IMG/VR virus record: IMGVR_UViG_3300026536_000001
Span: 1 to 59,586 of that record
Reading direction: 5' to 3' (one strand)
From: a virus
Taxonomy: Duplodnaviria > Caudoviricetes
DNA: 59,586 nt
Shown: positions 2,767-59,586 of the stretch, one piece after another
Layout: every line of letters begins with the position of its first letter
How positions within the stretch are numbered: position 1 is the stretch's first letter
Notes under the pieces: model-generated
Databases searched by the model: none
What the model was told of the DNA's origin: nothing
What the model saw: the letters and a program-made list of their open reading frames with translations, nothing else
Position numbers and translations under genes: made by a program

Positions 2767-2986
2767 ACCTCCGATCCACTCTATCCCGGAGTACTCCTAG
2801 AGTTATCGCCAGCACCATGAACGCATCGACTCGCGATAACCCCTCTTTAGCGAGAACATCGAAGACTTCCTTACTGATCCTGGCTGTATTCCACGCCTCT
2901 TCTTCCGTACTGCGAGAGGTCATCTCCACCCCAGCGGCAATCACCGTGTCGATCGCTTGATTCAACTGATCTCGATCGAACGTCAT
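2741..2986 (-). CDS. hypothetical protein
   Basis: coupled ORF in operon. Confidence 0.55.
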   Translation of the reverse strand: MTFDRDQLNQAIDTVIAAGVEMTSRSTEEEAWNTARISKEVFDVLAKEGLSRVDAFMVLAITLGVLRDRVDRRFGGESSIN

Positions 2987-3182
2987 TCATCTCCCGGTAT
3001 GGCCATGATCATTTCCTTCTCCCGGAGGAGCTGGAGCTCGATCATCACATCGGCCCAGCCCTGGAAGTTTTCGATACAGCCATCCGGGAAGGATAGCTTC
3101 TTTTCGATCTCGGCCCACATCAATAGGGTCCGCCGTTTGATGTCATCCATTTTTAGTCTCGATTCGGAATGTTCGCTCGTGT

Positions 3183-3346
3183 CTCGCCTTCGTCTCGTTT
3201 CGTCACAAAGCGTTCCACTTCGCATCGGATCTCGAATTCGTCTCGCAACAAACCACGGCACTACGCCTCGCCCCACTACGCTTCTCGGATTCGTCTCGCC
3301 TCGCAACACGCCACACCACATCGCAGCGAGACACGACGCGACTTCA
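3183..3346 (-). ncRNA. YG-NNN guide cassette, 3 units, all matching gene 3344-4315
   Basis: handles at 3183, 3231, 3284, 3337; decode to LFQSSFM, LKTGYLPY, LLNATIRD. Confidence 0.85.
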
Positions 3347-4315
3347 CTCCGCGGGAAAGATCAGTACTCCTAATCCGGCATCGAACCCGATTCCTTTCTC
3401 TCCAGTCACACTCGCCAACCACTCATCATTGCGGATGGTCTCATTGACCAAATTCTTTTTGGCCTCGGCATCCAGCTTCGTCCGCCGCATTAAAAAAGTC
3501 ATGAAACTCGACTGGAAGAGCGCACGCTTGACTTCTCTCCCCTTATTTTGCTTGGCGAGTTCATCCAATCCATCTTTCGCGATCGCGTCATAGTCGGCCG
3601 CGACCACGGTTCCGGTTTGAATCTCGCCGTTCGGTGGGATGACCGCCGCCGATCCGCTATTGGGTGATGGAGCCTTCGACCCTGCTCCGGTCCTCGTGGG
3701 TATCGGCGTCTTCCCAGCGGGCTTTCCTTTCCTCTCATACCCAAATACGTGAATCTTCTTCACACCTAGTAGTGTCCTCTCCCGTGTGGCATCTCCGCCT
3801 TCCGGAGTGAAGCCTGTCTTCAGCCGCTCGACATCGAACTTGGTTCCTTCCAGATATGGCAGATAGCCGGTCTTCAACAATTCATCCTTGAAGCCTTTAT
3901 CGGCCAGACTATGAGCGAATTTTGCCCAGGCGCAGTTCTCATAAATCTTGATCGGTTGGTGGTTGGGATCGCCAAACACGGTGTTGCCCTCCGCCCCGAG
4001 GGCCGCCCCCATATCCTCGGCCTCGCTGTCTTCGGGTTTGGCCAGCTTCCCTGGACGCAAAATATCGAGGGTATTCTTCCTGCCGAACCCTAAATGTTCC
4101 AAAGCGGGTTCGTCGTCGATCCTCTCCAACGTGTTGGGATCTAATTTGTACAGCTCTAACCGCACCATACAGGCCGGATCGGTTTGCTCTCCGGTTTGAC
4201 TGTTCGGCGGAAATTGATACACGATACAACTGGCTTTTCCGATCTCCCAGGTTCCTTCCTGAGCCCCGAATCCTCCTTTAACGGTATCTTTACTCGATAG
4301 ACTGATCTTTGGCAT
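3344..4315 (-). CDS. hypothetical replication-region protein (possibly ssDNA-binding)
   Basis: true start probably MPKISLSS (ATG 4315, SD AAGGAGAG); function inferred from context only. Confidence 0.65.
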   Translation of the reverse strand: MPKISLSSKDTVKGGFGAQEGTWEIGKASCIVYQFPPNSQTGEQTDPACMVRLELYKLDPNTLERIDDEPALEHLGFGRKNTLDILRPGKLAKPEDSEAEDMGAALGAEGNTVFGDPNHQPIKIYENCAWAKFAHSLADKGFKDELLKTGYLPYLEGTKFDVERLKTGFTPEGGDATRERTLLGVKKIHVFGYERKGKPAGKTPIPTRTGAGSKAPSPNSGSAAVIPPNGEIQTGTVVAADYDAIAKDGLDELAKQNKGREVKRALFQSSFMTFLMRRTKLDAEAKKNLVNETIRNDEWLASVTGEKGIGFDAGLGVLIFPAE

Positions 4316-4577
4316 GAAACTCTCCTTTAGGTTGAATGTTGATGTGTAAAGCGAATCCGGCATGGGTGACCGGCTCATCGGCACCGCACTTGAAACAGAT
4401 GCCTCTTTCGCGAAGCAGGTTGGGTTCTTGGAAGGTACAACGCTCACCACACTGGGGACAGGTGAATTTGAAGTAGATGACGGCACACTCCGGACCACCG
4501 AATCGAGTGACGACATCATCGGCCCGCTTCAGGATTTCTTCGCGCGGCAGGTCGCCTTGACGCGGCTTGAAGTTCAT
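4290..4577 (-). CDS. zinc-ribbon protein
   Basis: CPQC..CFKC; SD AGGAG before MNFKP. Confidence 0.6.
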   Translation of the reverse strand: MNFKPRQGDLPREEILKRADDVVTRFGGPECAVIYFKFTCPQCGERCTFQEPNLLRERGICFKCGADEPVTHAGFALHINIQPKGEFHAKDQSIE

Positions 4578-4621
4578 CGGCTTTCTCCTGATATTAGAAG
4601 TAAAAACGGATTGCACGTGTA

Positions 4622-4831: not shown

Positions 4832-6478
4832 TCATTCGTCCATTCCGAGGGCTTCGCGTTTGTCGAGGCTGTCATCATCGGCGATATCCTTCCGCGGCGT
4901 CCGTTCTGGCAGCTTCGTCAACGGCTTCGGTATCGCACTCACACTGAACACACTCTGGCTGAACCAACGCGGTGCCAGCTCCCGATTCTTTCCTAATAAC
5001 CACGATAAATGCGCGTCGGTGATAAACACCTCACACTGATCCGTCTCACTCCTCATCCCTCTCATGGTGGACTGGGCGAGTTCCTGTAAAGCTTCGGCAT
5101 TCATCCAATCCGGATCGTATCTGGTCTTGGCTTTAGCCAGCGGGGATTGGCTGGGCTGGAATGGCACCTTGGCCACAATAATAAACTCGCATTGACTAGC
5201 TGGGAAATCCCATCCGGTCCCGAACGACGGGGATACCAGGATCGCCGGTGCCGCGGCCTTCCTAAACTTATCCGCCGCTTCCGAAGCCGTGTCCGAGTCG
5301 GGATCGGTGGTATTCGCAATCATGAACCGGGCGTGCTGGGAATGCTGGAGCAAAAATTGTTGACGAGCGTAGGAGACCGTGTGGATCAATCCCTTCCGGT
5401 CCAATCTCGCGCCGATGATCTTATCGATATGCCGCACCCAGATGGCCAGCTCCTCCTCACTCGTCCTCCGATCCACTCTCACGGCCTTACCATTCGATCG
5501 CGGCGGGCAGAGATACACGGGCGAGCGTTCGGCCGGGAATATTCTCCCCCATTCCGTGAATTGTCCCTGGAGCCCGAGCTCCTCCAAGGTTCGTTTCTTG
5601 AGTGTCGCACTCATCAACACCACTCTCTGAACTCCCTGAATCAACAACCCGGTATATTTCTTAGGTGAGATCACATCCCAGGTCCAGGTCCTCCCGGCTG
5701 GCGTTGAGGCTTCGTACTCGAACACCCACTCCACTTTCGTCTTCCCCGGCAACGGCACCGGAAATCGCGCCAGCTTTTCCTCCAGCCTCTTCCAGCGTTT
5801 CAGCCGGTCTGTGCCTGTTGGAGTGAGGGCCCGGACACTGAGATCCTGAATGGCGATCCGGGCCAGTGGACGGATCTGAGCAACCCAGTGTTGCCAATCC
5901 GTGAGATTTCCGGTCTTGGGAGGAACCGTCACGATCCGCAACAAATGGAGTTCTCTATCGTCTATCGCGATCCTTAAATGATTGGCTAAATGTTTAACGG
6001 CATGAACCGCCTCATCCAGAATCAGCGTGTCGAAATTCCCGATCGCCTTGATCCCGGCCGCCAACCAATAACTGTAGTTCGACAACACCACAGGCGCGGC
6101 AGCAGCTTGTTGAACCGCGGCGACGTACCCCTCCGGGTTCGCACACCCACATCCCATCGGCCGTCCATCCTCACAGGTACGTGCCATGGGACACGGATAG
6201 TTCACCTGGCCTCGCACATCGACGAGATGATTGCGGAAGTCTTTGAGATATTGATCTTCTAAACCTTTCGTCGAAGTGAGAATCAGGGTTCGACCGGGCA
6301 GGCCGAGCTTCGCAATCGTCGCCGCCACCAGAGATTTCCCCGCTCCCGGCGGCAGTCCTAAACCCTGCACGGCGGAATCGCCGTATAAAGCCTGCTCGAC
6401 CGCTTCCAACTGCTCCGGCCGGTAGCTCTCATAGGAGAAACCGAGGTCTGCTGGCCGGAGGCCGTCCAGCGTGGTCAC
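4832..6478 (-). CDS. DinG/Rad3-like SF2 helicase
   Basis: YRPEQ Q-motif, PPGAGKS, ILDEAVH, MSATL, GWDFP, KVPF, RGMRSETD. Confidence 0.85.
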   Translation of the reverse strand: MTTLDGLRPADLGFSYESYRPEQLEAVEQALYGDSAVQGLGLPPGAGKSLVAATIAKLGLPGRTLILTSTKGLEDQYLKDFRNHLVDVRGQVNYPCPMARTCEDGRPMGCGCANPEGYVAAVQQAAAAPVVLSNYSYWLAAGIKAIGNFDTLILDEAVHAVKHLANHLRIAIDDRELHLLRIVTVPPKTGNLTDWQHWVAQIRPLARIAIQDLSVRALTPTGTDRLKRWKRLEEKLARFPVPLPGKTKVEWVFEYEASTPAGRTWTWDVISPKKYTGLLIQGVQRVVLMSATLKKRTLEELGLQGQFTEWGRIFPAERSPVYLCPPRSNGKAVRVDRRTSEEELAIWVRHIDKIIGARLDRKGLIHTVSYARQQFLLQHSQHARFMIANTTDPDSDTASEAADKFRKAAAPAILVSPSFGTGWDFPASQCEFIIVAKVPFQPSQSPLAKAKTRYDPDWMNAEALQELAQSTMRGMRSETDQCEVFITDAHLSWLLGKNRELAPRWFSQSVFSVSAIPKPLTKLPERTPRKDIADDDSLDKREALGMDE

Positions 6479-6548
6479 GATCTCGTCTCACGACACGGCA
6501 CCTCACCGCGCCCCAACACACGACGCTTCGCGGCGATTCTCGTCTTCG
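6476..6548 (-). ncRNA. YG-NNN guide cassette (1 unit) matching helicase N-terminus
   Basis: decodes to LDGLRPHDFGF vs resident LDGLRPADLGF. Confidence 0.85.
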
Positions 6549-6589
6549 TGGACGGCCTCCGATACTTCACCCTCATCGCGATTTCACTC

Positions 6590-7207: not shown

Positions 7208-7298
7208 CCAGGGTTCTGCTCATGGCTCGGCTTCACCTCGCTTCGGAACGGGTCACGCCACAGCAGCGCGATTCTCGCCTTCAGGACAGCCTCCGATG

Positions 7299-7616
7299 TC
7301 ATTGTTTCCTCTCGGGAGTGTTCGCCTCCCAGACTATTTCTCGTGGTAAGTCCATTTCTTCCACTAACTTAACTTGATCAGCGTACAGCTCTAGGTACGC
7401 GGCCAGATCATCCAGGGAGATCCCTAGAACTTCCGCCAATCTGCGGGCGACTTTCAAGCTCGGGTTCCTCCGGCCCAACAAAACGAGCGACAGATGCGAA
7501 TGCGATATCCCGACTTCTTTGCATAATTCTCTCAGGTTTAAATCCGGGCGAACCAACCCTTTCCGGCCTCTTCCTGTGGGTAATCCTTCGCTATCGAGCG
7601 ATCGAAAATGACTCAT
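7299..7616 (-). CDS. XRE-family HTH regulator
   Basis: LRELCKEVGISHSHLSLVLLGRRNPSLKVARRLA. Confidence 0.85.
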   Translation of the reverse strand: MSHFRSLDSEGLPTGRGRKGLVRPDLNLRELCKEVGISHSHLSLVLLGRRNPSLKVARRLAEVLGISLDDLAAYLELYADQVKLVEEMDLPREIVWEANTPERKQ

Positions 7617-16572: not shown

Positions 16573-16673
16573 ATCGACTTCGCCCCGATTCGCCTCACCT
16601 CGCGTCGTTTCTCGAATTCGTCTCGACTCGCCTCAGCCCGCCGCGCGGCGGCTCATTCCACCACTCGTCTTCA
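16573..16673 (-). ncRNA. YG-NNN guide cassette, 2 units
   Basis: handles 16573, 16611, 16664; one unit matches adjacent 16487-16507. Confidence 0.75.
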
Positions 16674-17713: not shown

Positions 17714-18109
17714 TCACACCGTCCTCGTTCGACTTACAGCAGGCGGATAAAGCCACGTCACTCCGTCAGGTTTCGATAAATCCATATCCAGATGAATAAA
17801 GCTGAAGCCAATACCAACCCTTCTGAAACCTAACGCGATGGCATTTTCGACGATCACAAATCTTGTGTGACTATCCCTCGCTGTGATGTCAACTGCAAGG
17901 CCGTTTTCGTGCGAGGAGGAATCGACTCCTCCGACTTCTCGATTGTGTTCGGGTGTGCGATATCCACTACTGATGAAGAGTGGAAAGCCGCATTTGGACC
18001 GCAGCTCGTCGAGGAGCTTTACGAAATCGAGATTCATCTTCGAGCCGCTTCCAGGCGCATCTGGACTTGAGAATTCATCCGGTTGGAAATAGCGTATGCC
18101 TTCCCACAT
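17714..18109 (-). CDS. peptidase M15A-family endolysin
   Basis: SSGYRTPEHN..SSHENGLAVDI..FIHLD. Confidence 0.9.
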   Translation of the reverse strand: MWEGIRYFQPDEFSSPDAPGSGSKMNLDFVKLLDELRSKCGFPLFISSGYRTPEHNREVGGVDSSSHENGLAVDITARDSHTRFVIVENAIALGFRRVGIGFSFIHLDMDLSKPDGVTWLYPPAVSRTRTV

Positions 18110-18164: not shown

Positions 18165-18242
18165 CTCGGCTTCACCCCAGAACGGCTCGAAACGGCCCAC
18201 ATCGGCCCACATCGGCTCAGCGCGAAACGACCCTCGGCTTCA
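18165..18242 (-). ncRNA. YG-NNN guide cassette (1 unit, 12 triplets) matching endolysin
   Basis: decodes to GFRSMGMGFSFG vs resident GFRRVGIGFSFI. Confidence 0.85.
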
Positions 18243-18274
18243 TCCCGTCCGGCCTCCGGTAAAATTCGCTTCCT

Positions 18275-20689: not shown

Positions 20690-21415
20690 ATGCCCAAAGG
20701 TTCACCTCCCGGCCGCCCTTTCAAGAAAGGAGACATCCCGGCCACCAAAGGCAAGCACCAAGTCCGTGGCTATTATCCGGGAACCCGTAAGCAGCGGGAG
20801 AAGGCCCCGCCCCCTCCACCTCCGACCGAGGGTCAGATCATGGACTCCATCGTCCAGAAGTTGAAGGTCGCCGACTCTCCTCTCGCTGTGGCTTTCTCTT
20901 CGCTGGATGGCGGCTGGCGCAACTATATCCGGTACGTGATCCAGGCGGCAAAAGAGGGCGACACTGAGATGCAGCGGTTCATGAACGCGCTCAATGGTCT
21001 TTCCGCACGCGAACGGTTGACGGTCTCTCCCGAAGATGTCTGTGATATGGCTGGTGTAAGTGTGGAGGATCTGATCGGGGCGGTCCTGCCGTTAATTTGG
21101 CGCTACTCCCGCTTGAGAAGTTCCATCGTTGCGGCCACTCACGATCCGGTCGTCCTCCGAACCACAGCGGCGTATGCGATGCGTCCGGATAATCAGCACG
21201 ATCGCGAGATCTTCTTGAAGGCGACAGGAACATTGCCAATTCCGAAAGGCAGTGTGACGGCTATTTTTAATTCCGCTGGTTCTGGGCCTCCCCCTCCGAC
21301 CCCGGCAGGAATCCTTCCCCCGGTATCTTCAGACATTTCAGATATGGAAGCTCTCGACGATAAATTTTCAGCTAGCAACCCCCTTGACACATCATCCAGT
21401 TCGGATGAGAATTGA
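20690..21415 (+). CDS. probable terminase small subunit
   Basis: GRPFKKG N-terminus, directly upstream of terL; its stop TGA is the first base triplet of a guide handle. Confidence 0.55.
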   Translation: MPKGSPPGRPFKKGDIPATKGKHQVRGYYPGTRKQREKAPPPPPPTEGQIMDSIVQKLKVADSPLAVAFSSLDGGWRNYIRYVIQAAKEGDTEMQRFMNALNGLSARERLTVSPEDVCDMAGVSVEDLIGAVLPLIWRYSRLRSSIVAATHDPVVLRTTAAYAMRPDNQHDREIFLKATGTLPIPKGSVTAIFNSAGSGPPPPTPAGILPPVSSDISDMEALDDKFSASNPLDTSSSSDEN

Positions 21416-21530
21416 AGCCGAGAGGCGAAGCGCCGCGTGCCGTCGTGGGACGTAGTGACGTGAAGCGCCGTGAGCCGCGCTGGCGTGTTGTGCCGTGACG
21501 TGAACCGCAGTGGGGTGAGACGAATTCGAG
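21413..21530 (+). ncRNA. YG-NNN guide (20 triplets) complementary to a terL homologue
   Basis: decodes to LPWFVGNARLGFVYPEHGFL vs resident LPWFTGSARLGYIYPEQGFL. Confidence 0.9.
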
Positions 21531-21542
21531 TCCTGACCTGCG

Positions 21543-23696
21543 ATGTACAGCGAAAAAGTCACACAAGCCAAGATCGCGTTCGCGTTGAGGACCGGCTTCT
21601 TGAAAACGGAGCCGGTCTTCCACACCCGCAGCGAGTGTGATGCCGCAGTCTCCCACCTGAAGTCCAACTGGGACGAAGACTCACAGACCTGGAAGCGTGA
21701 GTTAACTCGCGAAGAGATCGCGTTTATAAAAAACGAAAGGTTTCTCTGTCGCGTCAGTTATAATTATTGGAAAACGCGGTACTGCTGGATCAAGTCCCGT
21801 GAAGATAAGCCCATCCGTTACACTCCATGGGTTAGTCAAACAATTCTGACAGACATATTTTCCGAGCACGAGATCGAAGGCATCGCGATCGAGTTACAGG
21901 CACTTAAGGCTCGACAGCTCGGAGTCTCCCGCGAAGTCTCTCTGGCGCAGCTCCATAGAGTTCAGTTCTTCAGTCACATCAACGCCATGATGGCTTCCTC
22001 TGCTCCAGCAAAGACGGCGAAACTCGGCGATATGTTAGCCTTCACGTTGGGTTATCAGCCGCACTGGTTACTGCCTCGTTTCGCTTTCGGCCCCCGTGAG
22101 CAAGCCCAGCACTTCGGCGGGGAGTGGTTCGAGCTAGAGACAGGCTCCTCACTCACACTCCAGTCCGGATCTCAAGTCACTGGTATCGCCCGCGGCACAA
22201 CCCCTACCGTTATTCATATTAGCGAGCTTGCCGAGTTCGAGTACCAAGGTCTCGGCCCCGAAGAAGTCATCGACTCATCTTTATTCCGCGCAGTCCATCC
22301 CTCCGCTCGTGTCTTCATGGTTCTGGAATCCACCGCACTAGGCCAGTTCAATTGGTGGCACAAGAAGTGGCTCTCCTCCAAGTCCGGCTGGCCGACACGC
22401 CGCTCCCGCCTGCGTCCGGTCTTCCTTCCATGGTTTACCGGAAGTGCGCGTTTGGGCTATATATACCCAGAACAAGGATTTTTGGACCGCTCTCCCGTCC
22501 CCGCCAACTACTCTCCCGCACTCTGGGCTCTCGAACACGCCAAGCGAGCCGAAGATTACGTCAAGTCGAACGATACTCTGCGGGCGTACATGGGAAGCAA
22601 CTGGACGATGCCTCGCGAACAAATCTGGTTCTACGAAGTCGAGCGCCAGCAAGCCGTTAACGAAAATCGCTTGAATAAATTTTTTCAAGAGATGCCAAGT
22701 AGTGATGACGAGGCTTTTCAAAGTACGAACGTCTCGGTCTTCTCCACTGAAACCATCACCGCGCACCGCGACCGCACCCGCGCTCCACTCGGCGTCTACG
22801 GCTTGATCGGCCCGGATATGTCCCCCCGCACGGTCCTCTTCTCCCGCGCTCACATCGATCCCAACTCTAAACCGATTGTGATCGATTATCCGTGGGGCGC
22901 TCACCCGCACCAATACGAACTGGTCCCTCTACGCTGGGACGGTTACGCGACCGATGACGGTTTAGACAAACTCTACATTTGGGAGATGCCCGAAGACGGC
23001 CAGATCTACGGCCTCGGTGTGGACACCGCCGACGGTATAGGTAAGGACCGCTCAACCATAGAGGTATTAAGAAAAGGCTCTCCTCTTCAACGGGCGGGTC
23101 AGTGTGCGGAGTTCGCCTCGGATAAGATCAACGCTTTGGACTTGACCCCATACATGATGGCTTTGGGAGCTCTCTTCAGTGTCAAAGACACGGATGGGAA
23201 TCGTCGTCAGTGCCGTGCGGCGATTGAATGCCGGGGCAAGGGTGATCTCTCCCAATTGGGCATGAGAATCGATGGCTGGAGAAATTTTCACCCTTGGCAA
23301 CGTATTGATTCTAAAACCATTTCTCCCGACAAAGTAAGCAAGTTAGGGGTATTTACAAACGAATGGTTTCGTCAATCGATTCAAGAATATCTGGTGAAAT
23401 TCCTTCGCGATGAAGAGGTTGAAATTCTCTCGCCGTTCCTTGTGAGTGAAATGCAGTCCCTTGAGTCTCGTGAGGACGTGCAGAGCTTCCGCGCGACATA
23501 CGGCGGCCACGATGACAGAGTGATGTCGCTCGGTTTTATCCTCATTTCGTTATATCAGTACGAGCCCAATCGTCCTGTTGCTGCACTGACACAGACGAAG
23601 CAATCGCGGGGGCAAGTTCGATTTGAACGCAAATACGCTTCCTGGCGACCCAACGATCAGGAGCGCCTGACTACTTTAGATGACGCCAGCGTATGA
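21543..23696 (+). CDS. terL: terminase large subunit
   Basis: LKARQLGVS Walker A, HISE Walker B, LESTA, GVDTADG and HDDRVM RNase H-like motifs. Confidence 0.92.
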   Translation: MYSEKVTQAKIAFALRTGFLKTEPVFHTRSECDAAVSHLKSNWDEDSQTWKRELTREEIAFIKNERFLCRVSYNYWKTRYCWIKSREDKPIRYTPWVSQTILTDIFSEHEIEGIAIELQALKARQLGVSREVSLAQLHRVQFFSHINAMMASSAPAKTAKLGDMLAFTLGYQPHWLLPRFAFGPREQAQHFGGEWFELETGSSLTLQSGSQVTGIARGTTPTVIHISELAEFEYQGLGPEEVIDSSLFRAVHPSARVFMVLESTALGQFNWWHKKWLSSKSGWPTRRSRLRPVFLPWFTGSARLGYIYPEQGFLDRSPVPANYSPALWALEHAKRAEDYVKSNDTLRAYMGSNWTMPREQIWFYEVERQQAVNENRLNKFFQEMPSSDDEAFQSTNVSVFSTETITAHRDRTRAPLGVYGLIGPDMSPRTVLFSRAHIDPNSKPIVIDYPWGAHPHQYELVPLRWDGYATDDGLDKLYIWEMPEDGQIYGLGVDTADGIGKDRSTIEVLRKGSPLQRAGQCAEFASDKINALDLTPYMMALGALFSVKDTDGNRRQCRAAIECRGKGDLSQLGMRIDGWRNFHPWQRIDSKTISPDKVSKLGVFTNEWFRQSIQEYLVKFLRDEEVEILSPFLVSEMQSLESREDVQSFRATYGGHDDRVMSLGFILISLYQYEPNRPVAALTQTKQSRGQVRFERKYASWRPNDQERLTTLDDASV

Positions 23697-23917
23697 ACGA
23701 AAAGGTCTTTCAATCCAGTCACTTGCAACGCGGCGTTTACGATCCGGCGACGGGGAACCTAGAGATCGAGTTCGTCAATGGTCAACGCTATACTTACGAG
23801 GGCGTGCCGCAAGAGAAATGGGAGGCCCTGACACGAGCGGTATCCCCCGGAAAGTTCTTGCATAACTGGATCAAAGGATCGCATAATTCTCGACCGATGG
23901 GCACCTCTGAGACCTGA
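23693..23917 (+). CDS. KTSC domain protein
   Basis: YDPATGNLEIEFVNGQRYTYEGVP..SPGKF..IKG. Confidence 0.9.
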   Translation: MNEKVFQSSHLQRGVYDPATGNLEIEFVNGQRYTYEGVPQEKWEALTRAVSPGKFLHNWIKGSHNSRPMGTSET

Positions 23918-24035
23918 AGCCGAGGCTCGATTTGGAGCGTGTCGCGACGGGTTGAAGCGGGGTGAGACGAATCCGAGTAGCGATGTGTAGCGTAGCGAGG
24001 CGTCGTGGTTTGATCTGGCCTGCGGTGAAGCCGAG
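23915..24035 (+). ncRNA. YG-NNN guide cassette, 2 units (terL sense; portal antisense)
   Basis: decode to AIECRGKG and RAITDLYYIY. Confidence 0.9.
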
Positions 24036-24724: not shown

Positions 24725-26793
24725 GATCCGACACCGGTAATTTTTACTTGGCCCCACCGATACTCAACCAGGATGGCGAGACTCCCACTACTGACGAACT
24801 CCTCGGCTGGACAAAAGAGTTCCGTCAACAAGCGCAGTCATACCTAAGGCTGCAACCAGCGCACCCGTACATCCAAGATGGTCTCGACCTCATCAACGGA
24901 GACTTCGCTAAATCGACCGTCTCGACTCTCTCCAACGCCCGCACCGACTTGACCGTACGTAACGAAAAAGAACTGATCGCCGCTCAGACCAACCTCCGCA
25001 TCATCCCGGCCATCACCACCTCCATCGAAGCCTTCAAAGAGCAAGGCGTTTTATTAGATAAAAGTTGGATGTGGTGGCAGCAGAAAACCTTCGCCGATCG
25101 CGTGATCCGTCAAGCCTGGCAGAACGCCGTGGCTTTGGGCACCGGCTACTGTTCGATCGGCTACGACCCGGACTACTACTGTGCTGGTAAAGGCGAGATC
25201 GCCCTCCGTTCTCATGGCCCTCTCGATATCCTCCCGATCGGCCTCCCGCACGACCACAGTATCCAAAAGGCATATGCGGTCGCCATCAAAGTCCCCACGC
25301 CCTACCACCAAGTCATCGAAATGTTCCCGGACTTCCGCGATCAGATCCGCCCCACCACCGAGATGAAGGGCCGCGGCACCGTCATGGCCCAATCGGTCAA
25401 GTTCGCTTCGGCCGTCCTCAAACGTTTCGGTCCGACCGCGATTCAGGAACGCGAGCCGATGCCGTGGGCGATGACGGATTTATTTTACATTTATATCGAC
25501 GACCGCACCGTCAACCGCACCGGCAAAACCATCGCCATGGGCGACCCCCACACCTCCTGGGAGTACTTCGTCCCTTCTGTCGGCGATCTGATCGAGACCG
25601 GCCGCGACGACGAAGGCAAGTCCGTTTACAAACAAGCGACTCCGGAAGACTGCCGCTTCTATCCGAACCGCCGCCGGATCATCTGCACCGATAATTTAAT
25701 CCTCACTCCCGACCCGACTCTCCAGGTCAACCCGGCCTGGCACGGCAAGGTCCCCGTCGTTCAATTCCGCGCCGATGACTGGCCTTGGATGTTTCTCGGT
25801 TTCCCCCTCTCCAAAGCCGGAATGCTGCTGGAAAAAGCCAATACCGAGCTCCTGCGCGGCATCGTCGATATGATGAACGTGCGCCTCTCCCCACCGACCG
25901 GCTACGATCGTAACACCATGGCCCGCTCCCTAGCCGAAACCATCAATCTGCGCGTCCCCAACCAACGCCTCGGCCTCGATTACGGCCTGGGTGGCGACCA
26001 ATTCAAACCCCTCCTCCCGGTCGAGTTCCTGAACGTCCCCTCCAACATCCCGGAATTGATCACTCAAAACGAAGCCCGTCAGACGCACTACATGGGAGTG
26101 GCCGACGCTTCGGCCCTGACCCGTGCCCGCCAGCTCCCGGCCGGAGATTCCACCGACCGCTTATTAGAAGCCCTCGGTCCTCTGGTTAAAGATATGTCCC
26201 GGAACATGGAGCTCTCGGTCACCGGGATTGGCGAGATGTGGGTTCCGCTCGTGTTTCAGTGGTGGAAGGCGGGGAAGCGTTTCCAGATCTTTGGTGAAGA
26301 CGGACTCGTTGAAGAGGATATCGATTTCAACCCCGGTTCTCTGGTCCCTCAGGACGTTCTCTCTCTCCCCAAACACTCCTCCTACTTTGAACGCGCCCGG
26401 AAACATTGCGCTCATTTCCACTATGCGATCGAGCCGTACAGCCTGCACGAACTCAATTCGATGACACGGAAGATGGCCTTCCTCCAGCTTTCCCGCTCCG
26501 GCTTCCCGATTTCCTGGAAGACCCTAGCCCGAGTATGGGATGTCAAGAACTTCGACTTCGACCCCAAAGATACCGATCCGTCCAGCCCGAATTTCGGCAA
26601 GAGCCTCCAGGGAGAGTTCCCGATCTGGCTGGCCCAACAAGAGATTATGGCTCGAATCGCAATGGCCACGGGAGGCGGAGGCGGTAAAGGGAAAGGTCCT
26701 CAAGGACGTCCTCCTACGGGTCAGCAGCCGCCTTCTTTGGAGCAAAAAGGCGGGTTTGGTGGGCGCTCCACCATCCGCGAATCCAGGAGGTAG
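24721..26793 (+). CDS. portal protein
   Basis: 690 aa after terL; LGTGY..GYD, HGKVPVV motifs typical of podophage portals. Confidence 0.8.
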   Translation: MRSDTGNFYLAPPILNQDGETPTTDELLGWTKEFRQQAQSYLRLQPAHPYIQDGLDLINGDFAKSTVSTLSNARTDLTVRNEKELIAAQTNLRIIPAITTSIEAFKEQGVLLDKSWMWWQQKTFADRVIRQAWQNAVALGTGYCSIGYDPDYYCAGKGEIALRSHGPLDILPIGLPHDHSIQKAYAVAIKVPTPYHQVIEMFPDFRDQIRPTTEMKGRGTVMAQSVKFASAVLKRFGPTAIQEREPMPWAMTDLFYIYIDDRTVNRTGKTIAMGDPHTSWEYFVPSVGDLIETGRDDEGKSVYKQATPEDCRFYPNRRRIICTDNLILTPDPTLQVNPAWHGKVPVVQFRADDWPWMFLGFPLSKAGMLLEKANTELLRGIVDMMNVRLSPPTGYDRNTMARSLAETINLRVPNQRLGLDYGLGGDQFKPLLPVEFLNVPSNIPELITQNEARQTHYMGVADASALTRARQLPAGDSTDRLLEALGPLVKDMSRNMELSVTGIGEMWVPLVFQWWKAGKRFQIFGEDGLVEEDIDFNPGSLVPQDVLSLPKHSSYFERARKHCAHFHYAIEPYSLHELNSMTRKMAFLQLSRSGFPISWKTLARVWDVKNFDFDPKDTDPSSPNFGKSLQGEFPIWLAQQEIMARIAMATGGGGGKGKGPQGRPPTGQQPPSLEQKGGFGGRSTIRESRR

Positions 26794-28442: not shown

Positions 28443-28578
28443 CACGATCTCACATCGCGACACGACAACTCACGGCGTTTCACGACAACGCGCGCCACGA
28501 CACCGCACGACGATACGCTTCTCGGATTCGTCTCGCATCAACTCATCTCGCCACGACCCGGGTCGGCCCTCGTATTCA
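28443..28578 (-). ncRNA. YG-NNN guide cassette, 2 units, antisense to the late operon
   Basis: one unit decodes to IDELGFERADREYF vs scaffold IDELGLEGADKDYF. Confidence 0.85.
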
Positions 28579-28675: not shown

Positions 28676-29659
28676 ATGCCTGTAGACACCAAAAGAGTTC
28701 AAGAATTGATCGATGAGTTAGGTCTCGAAGGCGCGGACAAAGACTATTTCGCCCGCGTTCTCACCACCAATGAGAAGGCGGGCGTTGCTTTTACCGGGCA
28801 GAGAGAGAGGCACGATAGGTTTACGCAGAAGACTCAAGAACTCTCTCAGAAAGAGAAAGAGTTGGAACAACGTGCCAATCAGCGCGACTTGGAGTTAGCG
28901 CAACAGTTAAACGCGGCGGAGGATCGCATCCGCAAAATCATGGCCGACTATGAGACTTCCGAGATCTCTCGTACTAAAGCAGAGACACTTCTTCGCCGTG
29001 TCAAAGAGATTTACAATTTGAGTGACGAAGACATACCGAAGCTCTCCGAGCCTCCCAAGCCCAAAGACACTCCTCCTCTCGACATCGACAAGAAGTTCAG
29101 CGAGTTCAAGGACACACTCCTCAAGGAACTGGCTCCCAACTTCCGCGCCCTCCCTCGAATCAACGTCATTCAGGCAGAGATTTTTGAGAGGCACCGCGAG
29201 CTTACCGGCAAGCGTCTCACCCAGCGCGAAATGGAAGAACTGATGGCCGAATCCATGAAAGACAACGGTCCGACTCTCATGGAAGCTTGGCGCGAAAAAT
29301 ACAAGATCGCCGATATCGAGAAGAAGAAGGAACGCGAGGAGTGGTCCAAAGAGGACCGGCAGAAGTGGGAAGACGAACAGAAAGCCAAGAACAGCGAAGA
29401 AGCGATGCGGCAAGTCCGCTCCACTCCCGACGGCCGCACTCAACACCTCTCTCCGGTCTTCCGCGAATACAAACGGCACGAAGACGGCACCTTCGCTTCT
29501 CAGCAAGCTCCGGATAAGGACAAGAACCGTCCGGCCGACAGAGTACCGGCAGTGCAGAATGGACAGAAGTTGAGCGGAGCCGAACGAGCGGCGAAGAGCT
29601 TCATCGAAAGAAGACAGGCGGGAGTGCCTCTGGGGAAAGAGGCTGTTGGGAAAACCTAG
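28676..29659 (+). CDS. capsid scaffolding protein
   Basis: charged coiled coil (FTQKTQELSQ) upstream of MCP. Confidence 0.7.
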   Translation: MPVDTKRVQELIDELGLEGADKDYFARVLTTNEKAGVAFTGQRERHDRFTQKTQELSQKEKELEQRANQRDLELAQQLNAAEDRIRKIMADYETSEISRTKAETLLRRVKEIYNLSDEDIPKLSEPPKPKDTPPLDIDKKFSEFKDTLLKELAPNFRALPRINVIQAEIFERHRELTGKRLTQREMEELMAESMKDNGPTLMEAWREKYKIADIEKKKEREEWSKEDRQKWEDEQKAKNSEEAMRQVRSTPDGRTQHLSPVFREYKRHEDGTFASQQAPDKDKNRPADRVPAVQNGQKLSGAERAAKSFIERRQAGVPLGKEAVGKT

Positions 29660-45205: not shown

Positions 45206-45302
45206 TGAAGACGAGGTGCGACGTGTTACGCCCGTGATCCGAACCGATATGAGGTGAAGTCGAGCAGTGATGTGCGATGCAGCGATACGGGACGAAGCCG
45301 AG
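45206..45302 (+). ncRNA. YG-NNN guide cassette, 2 units, enclosed by a 13-bp inverted repeat
   Basis: handles TGAAGACGAG, TGAAGTCGAG, CGAAGCCGAG; IR 45190-45202/45311-45323. Confidence 0.75.
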
Positions 45303-50405: not shown

Positions 50406-50640
50406 CTCGACTTCATCTCACCACATTCCGGCTCGCCGCAAAACTCGGCTTCGTTTCAGCTCGTCGCAAACCACTACACACCAAGACGATTCTCGAATTC
50501 GTCTCGCTTCGTGACAACTCGTAACACCGCAATGCGATTCTCGGATTCGTCTCGTTCCAGATCGTCTCGCCTCACGTCGCCACAAATCACCACTCGGCTT
50601 CGTCTCGTCTCGACTCGGCTCACATCGCCGCTCGGCTTCA
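50406..50640 (-). ncRNA. YG-NNN guide cassette, 5 units
   Basis: handles 50406, 50444, 50492, 50540, 50593, 50631. Confidence 0.85.
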
Positions 50641-56460: not shown

Positions 56461-56487
56461 ACTCCTATCCTTTCTTTGAATTCGGTA

Positions 56488-57231
56488 CTCGGCTTCGTCT
56501 CAGATCACAGCACTCCAGCGCAAATCGATACTCGAATTCGTCTCGTCTCGACACGCGGCAACGCTCAACGAATCACCCCGGCCCTCGGCTTCATCTCAAC
56601 ACGTTACGTTGTGTCACACCTCGGCTTCACGTCGTCTCGCTTCGTATCGCGACACCGCTCTGCGCCTCTTGTATTCATCCCAGCACACTTCAGCGCAACC
56701 GCACAGCACGTCTCGGATTCACATCGCCTCACTGCAAGACGCAACACAACACATCGCCTCTCGACTTCGCCTCAGCTCATGTCACCGCGCATCACGACAG
56801 ATCGACTCTCGGCTTCGATTCACAACAAGCTCGACTCCGTTCATCGCGGATCGTCTCTCGGATTCATCGCAGCTCAACGCGCTTCACACCAACTCACGCC
56901 ACCACGCGACAACTCTCGGATTCACATCGGCGCACACCAGCGCAACACGTATCTCGGATTCACCTCACCACGACACTCGTCGCTACGCTTCACAACACAA
57001 CTCGAATTCGCCACAACTCACTTCGAAACAACGCACCACGCCGCGCGACACGTCTCGAATTCGTCTCACAACACTGCAACACACACCATCACGTCACACG
57101 TCGCAACTCGGATTCGTCTCGGTTCGTTTACGTATCAGGGCGTCCCCTATTCTCAATACTCGAATTCGTCTCGCGCCACACCAGCGCAACTCGCGTCGAA
57201 ACGCGGCACCTCGCTACGTCTCTCGTCTTCG
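56488..57231 (-). ncRNA. main YG-NNN guide array, 15 units between 16 handles
   Basis: handle spacings 43,53,36,48,44,48,48,49,58,38,48,53,53,52,63 (11 of 15 = 5n+3). Confidence 0.9.
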
Positions 57232-57235
57232 AGCT

Positions 57236-57937
57236 TTAGCTCGCTTCTTCAATGGTAGCGATATACTTTCCTCCGCCCGCTGATCTCTCCCCACCGTAGC
57301 CGTGCGTCCCTCCATAATTCATCAGCGTACTCAGATCCTTGATACTCACGGAGGTTCCCAGGATCTTCAATCTGAATTTGATCATGGCGGGCCGCACCAC
57401 TTCAAAGGACTTCAACGCATTGATGGGTTCTCCTCTCGGTCCTCTGGCGTGGACTGGCTTGTCCAACACTTCGTCGGCCGCAGTAACCGGAGTCCCGTCT
57501 GGCCGCAGGATCGGAATATACTCGTTGGCCTCATCCAAATATGCCCCGTTCACTACCCTTGTTGCAAAGCTCCGTTCACCTTTTATTTTCCCTATAAATT
57601 GCGCTGAGATCACCCTCGCACAATCCTTCAAATGCGCCCGTATCGTATCTTCCCGCACCACCAGCACCTCGTTCTTTTTCTGAAACACTCTTAACGGAAT
57701 GGCCGCTGTTGTTGGATTGGTCAGCGTATCGAGAACCTCCTCGGTGATCTCATCAATACTCTTTCCTCCTGCTGGCATCACGTCCGGAGCTCTACTGTCC
57801 AACCAGGGTCCGACCAGATTCCCATTGGCAGGCACAGACCCGCACAAGTCCCGGATGAAGTCCCACCTCACGTTATAAACGGTCCAGATCGAATCGTTTC
57901 TCTCTTTCGTTTTCGTTTCTTTCTCGGTAATACTCAT
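57236..57937 (-). CDS. stand-alone RAMP/Cas7-like RNA-binding protein (VIPR-like effector)
   Basis: N-terminal beta strand plus LCGSVP, TIRAHLKDCA helix, C-terminal G-rich loop YGGTHGYGGERSAGGGKY; abuts array; start MSITEK with SD AGGAG. Confidence 0.8.
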   Translation of the reverse strand: MSITEKETKTKERNDSIWTVYNVRWDFIRDLCGSVPANGNLVGPWLDSRAPDVMPAGGKSIDEITEEVLDTLTNPTTAAIPLRVFQKKNEVLVVREDTIRAHLKDCARVISAQFIGKIKGERSFATRVVNGAYLDEANEYIPILRPDGTPVTAADEVLDKPVHARGPRGEPINALKSFEVVRPAMIKFRLKILGTSVSIKDLSTLMNYGGTHGYGGERSAGGGKYIATIEEAS

Positions 57938-58016
57938 TGTTGGTTCTCCTGTTTTTATTGGCGACGTTCCGTTCCGTCTATGATGTACCGGTATCTCCCC
58001 CGGTGTAGGGAGTCTA

Positions 58017-58044
58017 ATTATATGCCCACAGTCGATATTGTCAA
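58017..58044 (-). promoter_or_regulatory. consensus sigma70 promoter TTGACA-N16-TATAAT driving RAMP gene and array
   Basis: perfect hexamers ~80 nt upstream of RAMP start. Confidence 0.8.
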
Positions 58045-58228
58045 GTGTCCACTTCAACCTTGCCATCGTGTAGACGCACGACGATTTTCAAAAACTCGGA
58101 ATTCTTCGTTTCGGCCATTATGGTTTTCGTATCCAATAAAAGACTCTTCCCGCTGCCATAGAGAAGATACAGCTTATCCAGATGTTCAATCAGGCTGTGA
58201 AACTCCGCGCGGACCTCCTGTTCAAAAG

Positions 58229-58990
58229 TCATACCGGCCTCCCATATAATTCCTTCACCACCTTCTCGGCCGTGACTCGGCTCTTCTTAATCCCGAGAGC
58301 TTGCATCCACTCCTCCACACTCGCCGAAACCATACTGACGGCGTTCGGGAAGAACTTCCCCACTTGCCATGCCCGGTGGTCGATACCTTCGATTTGACTG
58401 GCCATCCTCACCACGAGATTGGGCGGATCGGGGTGGATCAGCCGAACTGAAGTTGACTCTGGAGCTACCGGAGCATAGATGTCTCTCGGGCTCTTATGCG
58501 CCTCCCAGTCCTTCTCCCACCAGCGATAGAGATCCACAACACACTTCGCGGTCTCAGTTGGATTCGCTGTTCGACGGATCTTGACTCCGCACAATTCAAC
58601 GGAGGTGCAAAAATTATCCACTCCCTCGTATAGAGTCAACCTCTTCCCGAACAGCCCAGACCTCCATCCACCATTCCCATGGCAAATCTCCAGTTCTCCG
58701 CCTGGCCCCGGCCTCCAGATGCCCTCCACAACGAGGTATGTCACGTCGTAGGTCTTCAACAGCCCGCGCAACTGGTGGCCTTGTAACCGACCCGTCTCCA
58801 TTGATTGAATCAAGTCGGATATCGTTTTCCTCTCGACTCCAATAGAGAGCATCCCCTCCGGCCCGTTCCCAGCGAAAGCCAGGTCACCGAACTCCAGCCT
58901 CGACAACTGAACGATAACGCCGAAGGGATGGAAATAATTCTTCAATTCACGACTTCCGGCACGATCGTCTACAAGTATTTGCGGGTTCAT
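58229..58990 (-). CDS. ERCC4/XPF-domain nuclease
   Basis: ILVDDR..LEFGD..GVERKTISDL..YLVVEG. Confidence 0.85.
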   Translation of the reverse strand: MNPQILVDDRAGSRELKNYFHPFGVIVQLSRLEFGDLAFAGNGPEGMLSIGVERKTISDLIQSMETGRLQGHQLRGLLKTYDVTYLVVEGIWRPGPGGELEICHGNGGWRSGLFGKRLTLYEGVDNFCTSVELCGVKIRRTANPTETAKCVVDLYRWWEKDWEAHKSPRDIYAPVAPESTSVRLIHPDPPNLVVRMASQIEGIDHRAWQVGKFFPNAVSMVSASVEEWMQALGIKKSRVTAEKVVKELYGRPV

Positions 58991-58997
58991 CTCGACT

Positions 58998-59295
58998 CTC
59001 GGCTTCGTCTCGCTACAACTCGCGTCGGCACACTTCTCGGCTTCGTCTCGTCTCGAAACACTGCGACTCGTTGCGCTACGGGTCGTCTCTCGGATTCACC
59101 TCACGCCAGCACGAATCGACACATCTCACCACACTACTCGGATTCACCCCAACACGTCTCGTCACAACGCACCACAGCACAACACGGACCGACACTCGGA
59201 TTCACCTCACAGCAAGTCGTAACACAACACGCCGCAACGGTTCTCGACTTCACCCCACCACGCTCCACTCCACATCACGTCGCTTCTCGACTTCA
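58998..59295 (-). ncRNA. YG-NNN guide cassette, 6 units
   Basis: handle spacings 38,53,48,58,48,43 (all 5n+3). Confidence 0.88.
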
Positions 59296-59341
59296 ATCTC
59301 CGCCTTACGGCTCACGGATAAATGAGTCCGCGTAAAAGCTC

Positions 59342-59586
59342 TCAAACAGCACGTTGCCGCCTCCGGGCCGGTCTGGTCAACGCGGCTTCTACCAGCCAAC
59401 CCCGCTGAATCCTCGACCAAATCGCACTCCAATGGATACCCGTTTCATCCTGCCATGCCATCAAGCACTGGGTCTTCCCGAATGCAGTAATCATCCGGTT
59501 GGTTCGCCGGTTTCTAGCCTGTTCCATCCGCGTCGCCCAACAACAATTCGACGGCTCATAATTCCCAAGATTGTTCTTGCGCTCGA
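59342..59586 (-). CDS. C-terminal part of junction-spanning HNH endonuclease
   Basis: in frame with ORF starting at 521. Confidence 0.8.
   Translation of the reverse strand, partial: ERKNNLGNYEPSNCCWATRMEQARNRRTNRMITAFGKTQCLMAWQDETGIHWSAIWSRIQRGWLVEAALTRPARRRQRAV

Follow-up and report, generated by a model that had tools for sequence, protein, structure and literature searches.

A candidate three-guide VIPR cassette beside a mismatched resident gene, and its dispersed relatives, in a phage genome from soil metagenomes

The DNA considered here is a complete phage genome (Duplodnaviria; Caudoviricetes; IMG/VR record IMGVR_UViG_3300026536_000001), whose full length of 59,586 nt is called the window below. 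Our analysis suggests that the intergenic interval 3183-3343 is a cassette of three guides of the Viral Interference Programmable Repeat (VIPR) type, aimed at the alleles of the P0001 family carried by rival phages and linked to a mismatched resident allele, the adjoining gene P0001 (3344-4519); we put the probability of this reading at about 0.6. VIPR was first described in 2026, and its natural biology comes mainly from one E. coli phage family; statements on published VIPR in this text draw on parts of the preprints. The system combines a phage-borne ancestral RAMP protein, Vipr, with guide RNAs (vrRNAs) made of YNNGG pentamers, whose NN dinucleotides read double-stranded DNA with a one-nucleotide skip, usually of the wobble base; its complex represses transcription, disturbed NN pairing abolished silencing, and in nature the system is directed at competing phages, satellites and other VIPR systems (10.64898/2026.04.26.720920). 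The features that carry the argument are listed below; informative bases are the first two of the three variable bases of a pentamer, which face codon positions 1 and 2.

3183-3343, minus strand: three-unit vrRNA-like mini-array, with headers at 3183-3190, 3231-3238 and 3284-3291
3191-3230, 3239-3283 and 3292-3341: pentamer tracts of the mini-array (8, 9 and 10 pentamers), C-R-N-N-N on the plus strand
3344-4519, minus strand: resident gene P0001, a 391-aa open reading frame (ORF) in a replication-gene neighbourhood
3500-3520, minus strand: site of guide 1, LFQSSFM, 7/7 residues identical, 11/16 informative bases, both Ser codons in the other family
3852-3877, minus strand: site of guide 2, LKTGYLPY-L, 16/18 informative bases, p = 0.01 against 100 shuffles
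3425-3451, minus strand: site of guide 3, guide LLNATIRDD against resident LVNETIRND, 6/9 residues, 15/20 informative bases
57236-58066, minus strand: vipr-like gene P0002, 276 aa, a predicted Cas7-like RAMP with the C-terminal G-rich loop HGYGGERSAGGG

Three guides beside gene P0001

The 160-nt gap 3183-3343, which extends from the stop codon of P0001 to the next minus-strand gene, is filled by three units, each consisting of an 8-nt header (CTCGCCTT, CTCGAATT and CTCGGATT) and then 8, 9 or 10 pentamers C-[G/A]-N-N-N. The constant C at position 1 and the G or A at position 2 are set by the search pattern itself; position 3 is C in 52% of the pentamers, and positions 4-5 are variable. In a scan of the whole window, headers of the general form CTCGRNTT precede nearly all of the 36 strict runs of at least six pentamers, the start-to-start spacings of units are 38, 43, 48 and 53 nt (8+5n), and nothing more than the 8-nt header and one semi-conserved pentamer lies between tracts. 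Half of the units (17 of 34) begin their tract with CGTCT (e.g., at 3191-3195, 3239-3243 and 3292-3296), and the informative CT of this pentamer faces a resident Leu or Phe codon in six of the eight matched units that bear CT (manual reading). There are hints that the semi-conserved end pentamer also pairs, acting as a fixed anchor.

The orientation of the arrays relative to vipr in 41 loci, described below, points to the minus strand as the guide RNA, on which the units would read NN-n-Y-G, a GYG-like variant of GGY. Only 2 nt separate the tract from the stop codon of P0001, so that the cassette would be read through from this gene. No Rfam family reached the threshold in a search of the array, and a promoter and terminator scan near it yielded nothing above shuffle expectation.

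When the first two letters of each pentamer are dropped and frame +1 is read, the three tracts yield the decoded strings that a preceding sequence-only reading of this DNA had quoted, and its three comparisons with P0001 are present as it described them, including the Ser-Ser swap (AGT TCC in guide 1, TCG AGT in the resident gene) and the Leu swaps. Its term "guides" agrees with the VIPR vrRNA architecture and with the Vipr RAMP gene found in the same genome. The peptide of guide 2, LKTGYLPY, is identical in 8/8 residues to 3854-3877 on the minus strand, and the two informative mismatches of this guide fall in its first and last pentamers, both at Leu codons of the other family (manual reading). 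As contiguous DNA the decoded strings gave 0 matches in the window at up to two mismatches, and full-triplet decoded guides compared at the nucleotide level with the window (G000) and the genomes or contigs G001-G003 gave no matches beyond reversed-sequence controls.

In a peptide-level test that masked the arrays and compared each unit with 200 codon shuffles, the best match of each of the three units in the whole 59.6-kb window was the P0001 gene next door, with p = 0.005, 0.005 and 0.025 for guides 1, 2 and 3, respectively. The earlier proposal that all three relate to one gene, with all sites in 3344-4519 (minus strand), is supported. Across the genome, the same masked test gave p<=0.01 in 5/34 units, and all five matches lay less than 1 kb from their own unit. 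The unmasked control is noisy: a nearby best match was obtained for 10/34 units with the real frame 1, against 0-8/34 with other frames and decodings. The highest of these alternatives (8/34 and 7/34) came from decodings in which codon positions 1 and 2 are preserved; up to 7/34 were reached with the reverse complement, and up to 6/34 with triplet shuffles.

The true start of P0001 is probably the Met at residue 69 (MPKISL), as all homologues align from MPKISL onward, giving a predicted protein of 323 aa. No Pfam, PHROG or PADLOC family was matched by it; structural leads in Atlas (OB-fold/SSB-like, with DUF3127 and SSB) are weak and lie under Atlas's own bar. The importance that the sequence-only reading ascribed to this gene is conjectural.

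A two-base code and the alleles that the guides fit

Over ten guide-gene pairs, the guide agrees with the resident gene in 81/110 codons at position 1 (74%), in 97/110 at position 2 (88%) and in 36/110 at position 3 (33%). The third base is close to uninformative, and two bases per pentamer carry the target information; this is why the decoded strings look maximally recoded. The decoded frame is identical in 10/10 matched pairs, so that pentamers and codons run in a fixed register. Among the guides of at least nine pentamers from all loci (n=45), a 1-nt skip gave seven matches of at least 85%, one of them perfect, and the same guides gave one such match each under skips of 0, 2 and 3 nt; shuffled guides gave two. 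Run on all 275 units, the skip test is powerless for short guides, and for long ones its numbers are small.

The "maximal synonymous change" seen earlier at the three sites was overstated. At identical residues 15 of the 20 codons differ (Met excluded, hand count), compared with 0.61-0.62 between the resident gene and two natural homologues, and most of this is accounted for by the skipped wobble base together with ordinary saturation. The spikes of synonymous divergence predicted at the three sites did not appear either: along P0001, compared with two homologues, divergence is roughly uniform at 0.61-0.62, with windows of 0.35-0.86, which is the outcome that the sequence-only reading had itself named as counting against it.

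The third variable base shares the purine or pyrimidine class of the resident wobble base in 20/22 two-fold codon boxes and in 10/22 four-fold ones, the pairs having been picked without use of that base; in a wider set of pairs the figures are 31/33 and 16/30. Over all units of the window, the third variable base in two-fold boxes is C in 61, A in 31, G in 19 and T in 13 cases, which on the presumed RNA strand amounts mostly to G and U, both wobble-capable; the real genes of the phage favour G over A. The excess of A over G (31:19 in the window genome) was not seen in other loci (128:135). Guides overall have no clear depletion of in-frame stop codons (manual reading), so the third-base signal is confined to near-self guides.

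In nine guide-gene pairs 33 codons differ at informative bases, and 13 of the 33 keep the resident amino acid, all by swaps between the codon families of Leu, Ser or Arg. A guide is not translated, and yet its mismatches are synonymous, which suggests that it follows a real coding sequence other than that of the resident. Such swaps occur at 13 of 21 identical Leu/Ser/Arg positions against 7.4 expected (P=0.006; Poisson-binomial with the usage of this genome), in samples that are small and post hoc. A swap of this kind is the only synonymous route past a wobble-blind guide, and an excess of swaps is what an arms race with such a guide predicts.

A parallel case is found in contig G003 (locus L046), where a 10-pentamer guide (3995-4044) agrees in 20/20 informative bases, with the skip on the wobble base, with the codons of the invariant vipr G-loop (HGYAGERSDG) in two other phages (loci L020 and L034). 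The vipr gene of G003 itself encodes the same ten residues with AGA and TCC in place of CGN and AGC, and agrees with its own guide in 17/20. The Arg of the G-loop GER is encoded by AGR in 12 of 39 vipr genes, against a background of 12.5% in long ORFs (binomial p=0.002, kinship ignored). The Ser that follows this Arg is AGY in ten and TCN in nine vipr genes, kinship again ignored.

Selection for escape, proposed in the sequence-only reading, is borne out in part. The Leu/Ser/Arg swaps and the vipr case of G003 speak for it; the third-position differences do not, since that base is skipped in published VIPR, and guide 2 has not been escaped, as 16 of its 18 informative bases match the resident gene. 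At two of the residues in which guide 3 differs from the resident, A and D, it agrees with the natural homologues P0154 and P0155 (manual alignment reading), and a 20-pentamer guide elsewhere in the window also agrees with natural homologues at some residues differing from the resident (manual reading). Taken together, the synonymous swaps, the third-base class match and the agreement with natural homologues point to alleles of related phages, rather than to the resident allele, as what the guides of near-self pairs were made against.

By analogy with the canonical GGY/NN systems, one Vipr protomer would bind each pentamer, hide the fixed trinucleotide and present the two variable bases. These would pair with double-stranded DNA with every third target base flipped out, and the bound complex would repress transcription. 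The three guides would be aimed at the P0001-family alleles of related competing phages, and the resident allele would be spared, or partly spared, through its differences at informative bases, i.e., amino-acid changes and Leu/Ser/Arg family swaps. As the guide lies beside the resident allele, both would be inherited together when related phages recombine, so that recombinants would avoid inheriting a guide against their own gene.

The Vipr-like protein, dispersed cassettes and competing explanations

P0002 is the protein common to the window and to the array-bearing contigs G002 and G003, which were found by a header-plus-pentamer pattern scan of viral contigs; in the window its gene is flanked by the two largest arrays. 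Other hits of the pattern scans were discarded: the sole locus of the first scan (L002) is a chance tandem repeat, and 7/9 loci of the second are chance or simple repeats. The P0002 family comprises 222 representative clusters and has the C-terminal motif HGYGGERSxGxG, in which G256, R261 and G266 are invariant. The alignment-based AF2 model (pLDDT 87.6) has as its top Foldseek matches type VII Cas7, Csm3, Cmr4 and Cas7-11 (E about 2e-6, from 1.7e-6 to 1e-4; probability 1.00); the sequence profile gave weak matches to Csm4, Cas7 and Cas6 chains, and no Pfam (Nop included), PHROG or PADLOC family was matched. As modelled, P0002 is a small RAMP with a G-rich loop and agrees by description with published Vipr, a small RAMP with an RRM core, a G-rich loop and a thumb. 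We regard the element as a member of VIPR in a compact, non-GGY form.

In 41 viral loci with a P0002 homologue, 206 C-R-N-N-N runs lie on the strand opposite to vipr and nine on the vipr strand (manual tally), and 40 of the 41 have at least one run on the opposite strand (manual count). Most runs sit just downstream of vipr and bear the CTCG header. The family had no match among cultured phages, and a genome-contig collection contained two loci only, both in metagenome-assembled genomes.

An ERCC4-domain nuclease gene lies directly upstream of vipr in the gene row ERCC4 - 63-aa ORF - vipr. Its homologue, 41% identical, is found at 59122-59886 in G001, a 60.9-kb relative with direct terminal repeats (L003-L007), whose DNA polymerase A is 56% and P0001 homologue 35% identical to those of the window; neither vipr nor pentamer arrays were found in G001. 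The ERCC4 gene is probably not a VIPR accessory but a core phage (recombination) gene beside which the VIPR locus was inserted.

The window has an exact 127-nt direct terminal repeat (1-127 = 59460-59586), corresponding to a complete genome of about 59.46 kb, and IMG/VR classes the record as having direct terminal repeats and 100% completeness. The same phage sequence was found in soil metagenome runs of 15 studies, and contigs of four soil runs covering 2900-4600 were identical, with no variants.

Guide cassettes occur at about 13 intergenic sites of the window. Those outside 3183-3343 are listed here together with the nuclease gene.

56483-57235, minus strand: main vrRNA array, immediately downstream of vipr
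58229-58990, minus strand: ERCC4-domain nuclease gene, directly upstream of vipr (Pfam ERCC4, E 3.1e-9)
58998-59299, minus strand: the other large array flanking vipr, located upstream of its gene row (ERCC4 - small ORF - vipr)
50406-50640, minus strand: five-unit array, no match detected in its own genome
51590-51664, minus strand: single unit of 11 pentamers, located upstream of the DNA polymerase A gene
6476-6552, minus strand: single unit with header CACGATCT, upstream of the helicase gene 4832-6478 (minus strand), codons 4-13 of which it matches at 19/22, p = 0.02
7226-7285, minus strand: single unit beside the helix-turn-helix gene 7299-7616 (minus strand); matches 7440-7460 at 12/16, non-significant by the two-base rule alone
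16573-16663, strand unassigned: two units, no own-genome match
18165-18246, strand unassigned: single 12-pentamer unit; matches 17796-17830 (plus strand) at 20/24, p = 0.01
21415-21530, plus strand: single 20-pentamer unit with C-R-N-N-N on the minus strand, upstream of the gene 21543-23696 (plus strand); matches 22425-22483 at 33/40
23917-24035, plus strand: two units, one matching 25465-25493 (plus strand) at 17/20, the other 23220-23245 (minus strand) at 16/18
28443-28576, strand unassigned: two units, upstream of 28676-29659 (plus strand); the 14-pentamer unit matches codons 12-25 at 23/28
45224-45302, plus strand: two units of only 5 and 6 pentamers, a length that does not allow assignment

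Significant self-matches (p<=0.02) were obtained for seven guides, at 82-89% of informative bases, and 7/7 lie less than 1.5 kb from the matched site. The 20-pentamer unit (21423) agrees with the gene 21543-23696 in 14/19 residues and fits the G001 homologue (34/40) slightly better than its own gene. The last unit of the main array (57167-57221) resembles the phage's own vipr at 57537-57568 (16/22 informative bases). The match of 28443-28576 is the sole case in which the C-R-N-N-N strand is the gene's own strand. Header CACGATCT replaces CTCGRNTT in two units (6476-6483 and 28443-28450), each upstream of a gene whose 5' codons match. The guides at 23925-23969 (matching 23220-23245, minus strand) and 18173-18232 (matching 17796-17830, plus strand) correspond to frames outside the simple ORF calls, which at these two sites give a 717-aa ORF on the plus strand and one of 131 aa on the minus strand; the guides are aimed at the antisense strand, or else the genes are miscalled at these places.

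Among the other genomes of the P0002 family that were scanned, arrays formed a single cluster in 8/8 of those with arrays detected (manual reading of positions); in two further genomes of that scan the longer pattern found nothing. Of 55 guides in other loci, two had significant near-self matches, both in G003. Judging by the parts of the VIPR preprints considered here, the dispersed, gene-linked, near-self arrangement is apparently unreported. The dispersed cassettes may reflect linkage of a guide with the mismatched resident allele; a homing-like spread would be a bolder form of this idea. A wider proposal, which we make only tentatively, is that VIPR guides have left the vipr locus as modules of about 50 nt, each a "weapon plus immune allele", with the resident made immune by Leu/Ser/Arg swaps; the third base, which keeps the wobble class of the target, would then mean either that this clade reads three of the five bases or that guides were copied from contiguous target triplets into the pentamer scaffold.

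Several observations weigh against the reading of 3183-3343 as a VIPR cassette aimed at rival-phage alleles. Under the two-base rule by itself, guides 1 and 3 match best elsewhere (p=0.94 and 0.55), so that what ties them to P0001 is the peptide-level test, in which the third base counts as well. For none of the three guides was a sequence found with a better fit than that of the resident gene: the homologues in G001, L060 and L061 reach 11-15 informative bases per guide (out of 16, 18 and 20), not above the resident, and protein homologues of P0001 read otherwise at the sites of guides 1 and 2. Guide 2 and six others match their own genes at 82-89%, above the 80% target cut-off of the VIPR authors, and self-targeting therefore has to be weighed seriously. 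Guides compared with vipr genes at up to two mismatches gave eight matches against 7.4 expected, i.e., no enrichment. No vap gene was recognised, and no neighbour of vipr is conserved across 38 loci (BLAST E<=1e-5). The structured 3' tail of the characterised VIPR type (a pseudoknot in the SUSP1 clade) is absent here; the tail is a mark of the characterised type II and does not delimit the family as a whole. Finally, we infer the strand, processing and expression of the guide RNAs, and the public runs that contain the 3183-3343 stretch include no RNA run. As to relatives of P0001 itself, three metagenome loci that contain them have no arrays, and none were found in viral contigs by pattern or among cultured phages.

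Self-regulation, which we consider rather unlikely, would have the dispersed guides load Vipr onto neighbouring genes of the phage itself, damping or timing their expression, with the mismatch setting the strength. The cassettes stand inside gene rows and would be co-transcribed; published VIPR is a repressor; the seven guides match sites less than 1.5 kb away above the published 80% criterion; and the units at 6484 and 28451 each lie upstream of the gene whose first 13-25 codons they match, a position in which a roadblock has the greatest effect. Under self-regulation, however, mismatches should be random, and yet 13/33 mismatched codons are synonymous family swaps, beyond the saturated expectation (13/21 vs 7.4, P=0.006). 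The third base, moreover, keeps its class in 20/22 two-fold but 10/22 four-fold boxes, which indicates that the guides track a different coding allele. Two further points speak against self-regulation: guide 1 matches the resident at only 11/16, and the VIPR authors report a loss of silencing when NN pairing was disturbed.

The cassettes could instead be selfish and homing-like, each guide spreading together with the adjacent mismatched allele in mixed infections: the rival allele would be bound or cut, and recombination would then put the locus with the guide in its place. The comparison is with the free-standing homing endonuclease genes known from T-even phages. All seven guides have the resident homologue of their presumed target less than 1.5 kb away, cassettes are spread over about 13 sites in the window genome only, against a single cluster in eight other array-bearing genomes, and an ERCC4 nuclease gene heads the vipr row, published VIPR types III-V also bearing nucleases. 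We nevertheless hold this account to be improbable: the ERCC4 gene is present in the VIPR-less G001 as well and is probably a core gene, no nuclease is conserved beside vipr in 38 loci, and characterised VIPR only represses. The nearest comparison, G001, is only 35-56% identical in the compared proteins, and the genomes compared include no related pair of which one member has a cassette at a given site and the other lacks it.

That the pentamers are not a guide system of this kind, but repeats that bind protein or curve DNA, or else an array of CRISPR or TIGR type, and that the peptide matches arose by chance, is scarcely credible: phages commonly carry intergenic repeat families and alternative decodings gave up to 8/34 nearby matches in the unmasked control, but the shuffle tests, the frame lock in 10/10 pairs and the co-inheritance of a RAMP gene with arrays in 41 loci contradict it, and TIGR architecture, an Rfam family and a PADLOC match in the eight proteins scanned are all absent.

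If the reading as a cassette against rival alleles is true, guides would be dispersed through a phage genome, each linked to a resident near-copy of its target, an arrangement not found in the parts of the VIPR preprints considered here. Discrimination between self and non-self would then depend partly on the choice of codon family; terms for such an escape were absent from the first and third VIPR preprints. This would provide a rule for escaping a wobble-skipping guide with no change in the protein, and would explain the high polymorphism to be expected of Arg, Ser and Leu codons in targeted motifs. The seven guides with self-matches of 82-89% would constitute a natural data set on mismatch tolerance. 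The signal at the third variable base bears on the origin of VIPR guides, and copying of triplets into a pentamer scaffold, if true, would be the first hint at how these guides are acquired.

Comparison with known systems

The closest match is VIPR itself, as far as the preprints describe it. Like VIPR, the system is phage-borne, has one small Cas7-like RAMP with a G-rich loop and pentamer guides with variable dinucleotides, and has informative bases that face the first two positions of a codon and pass over the wobble base. In the window, G002 and G003, vipr is flanked by arrays, some guides fit the vipr genes of other phages, and self-match is below non-self match. In the structural companion study, one protomer covers each pentamer, the trinucleotide is sequestered and NN pairs with the target, whose skipped base is flipped out; the third preprint describes solo vrRNAs, vipr-targeting guides and a self-match below the non-self match (10.64898/2026.04.26.720927, 10.64898/2026.10.15.759431).

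The differences from canonical VIPR are several. First, the fixed part is n-Y-G here (C-R-n on the other strand) and GGY there; the first preprint lists the alternative repeats NNNGG, YNNNG and NNNNG, seven types, of which III-V bear nucleases, and staggered, ribozyme-spaced and single architectures (10.64898/2026.04.26.720920), and the n-Y-G/NN motif fits its "related consensus" and its NNNNG class. Second, units here are 38-58 nt long with an 8-nt header and tracts of 5-20 pentamers, and no vap gene was recognised beside them, whereas canonical vrRNAs are about 100 nt long with a structured or pseudoknotted tail. Third, cassettes are dispersed over about 13 intergenic sites with a near-matching resident gene alongside. 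Finally, self-matches here reach 82-89%, whereas the VIPR authors, calling targets at an 80% cut-off, had no self-hits at that level in their sets (10.64898/2026.04.26.720920).

Non-canonical 5-nt arrays (CAC/NN, GAC/NN, WGT/NN and TGH/NN; 21 clusters) have been described beside Vipr-like folds (10.64898/2026.10.21.760802). They share with the present arrays the pentamer period and a non-GGY trinucleotide, and the plus strand here, C-A/G-(C)-N-N, fits CAC/NN. They are characterised there by repeat logos and neighbouring folds; in the parts of that preprint considered here, targets, dispersal and the relation to adjacent genes are not described.

TIGR arrays consist of two alternating 8-12-nt repeats with 9-nt spacers and adjoin the gene of a Nop-domain Tas protein (PMC12045711). 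TIGR-Tas resembles the present system in being phage-borne and compact, with tandem short guide units and no long conserved repeats; it was rejected because P0002 has a predicted RAMP fold and no Nop domain, and because the units are 8 nt + 5n rather than edge and loop repeats. CRISPR-Cas was rejected as well, as there are no 23-50-nt direct repeats with contiguous spacers and no PADLOC match among the eight proteins scanned (Vipr and P0001 included). The Cas7 backbones of Class 1 CRISPR (type III Csm3/Cmr4 and type VII Cas7) are nevertheless similar in the predicted fold of P0002 and in the periodic interruption of the guide. They differ in that the period here is 5 nt, not 6 nt, with three guide letters displaced per unit, and that no repeat-spacer array, cas1/cas2, or Cas10, Cas5 or Cas6 partners accompany it.

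In concept, the nearest parallels are the mini-CRISPR arrays of viruses and free-standing homing endonuclease genes, in which a weapon against a relative's allele is carried together with an own allele that is mismatched to it; the machinery differs, and the likeness is conceptual.

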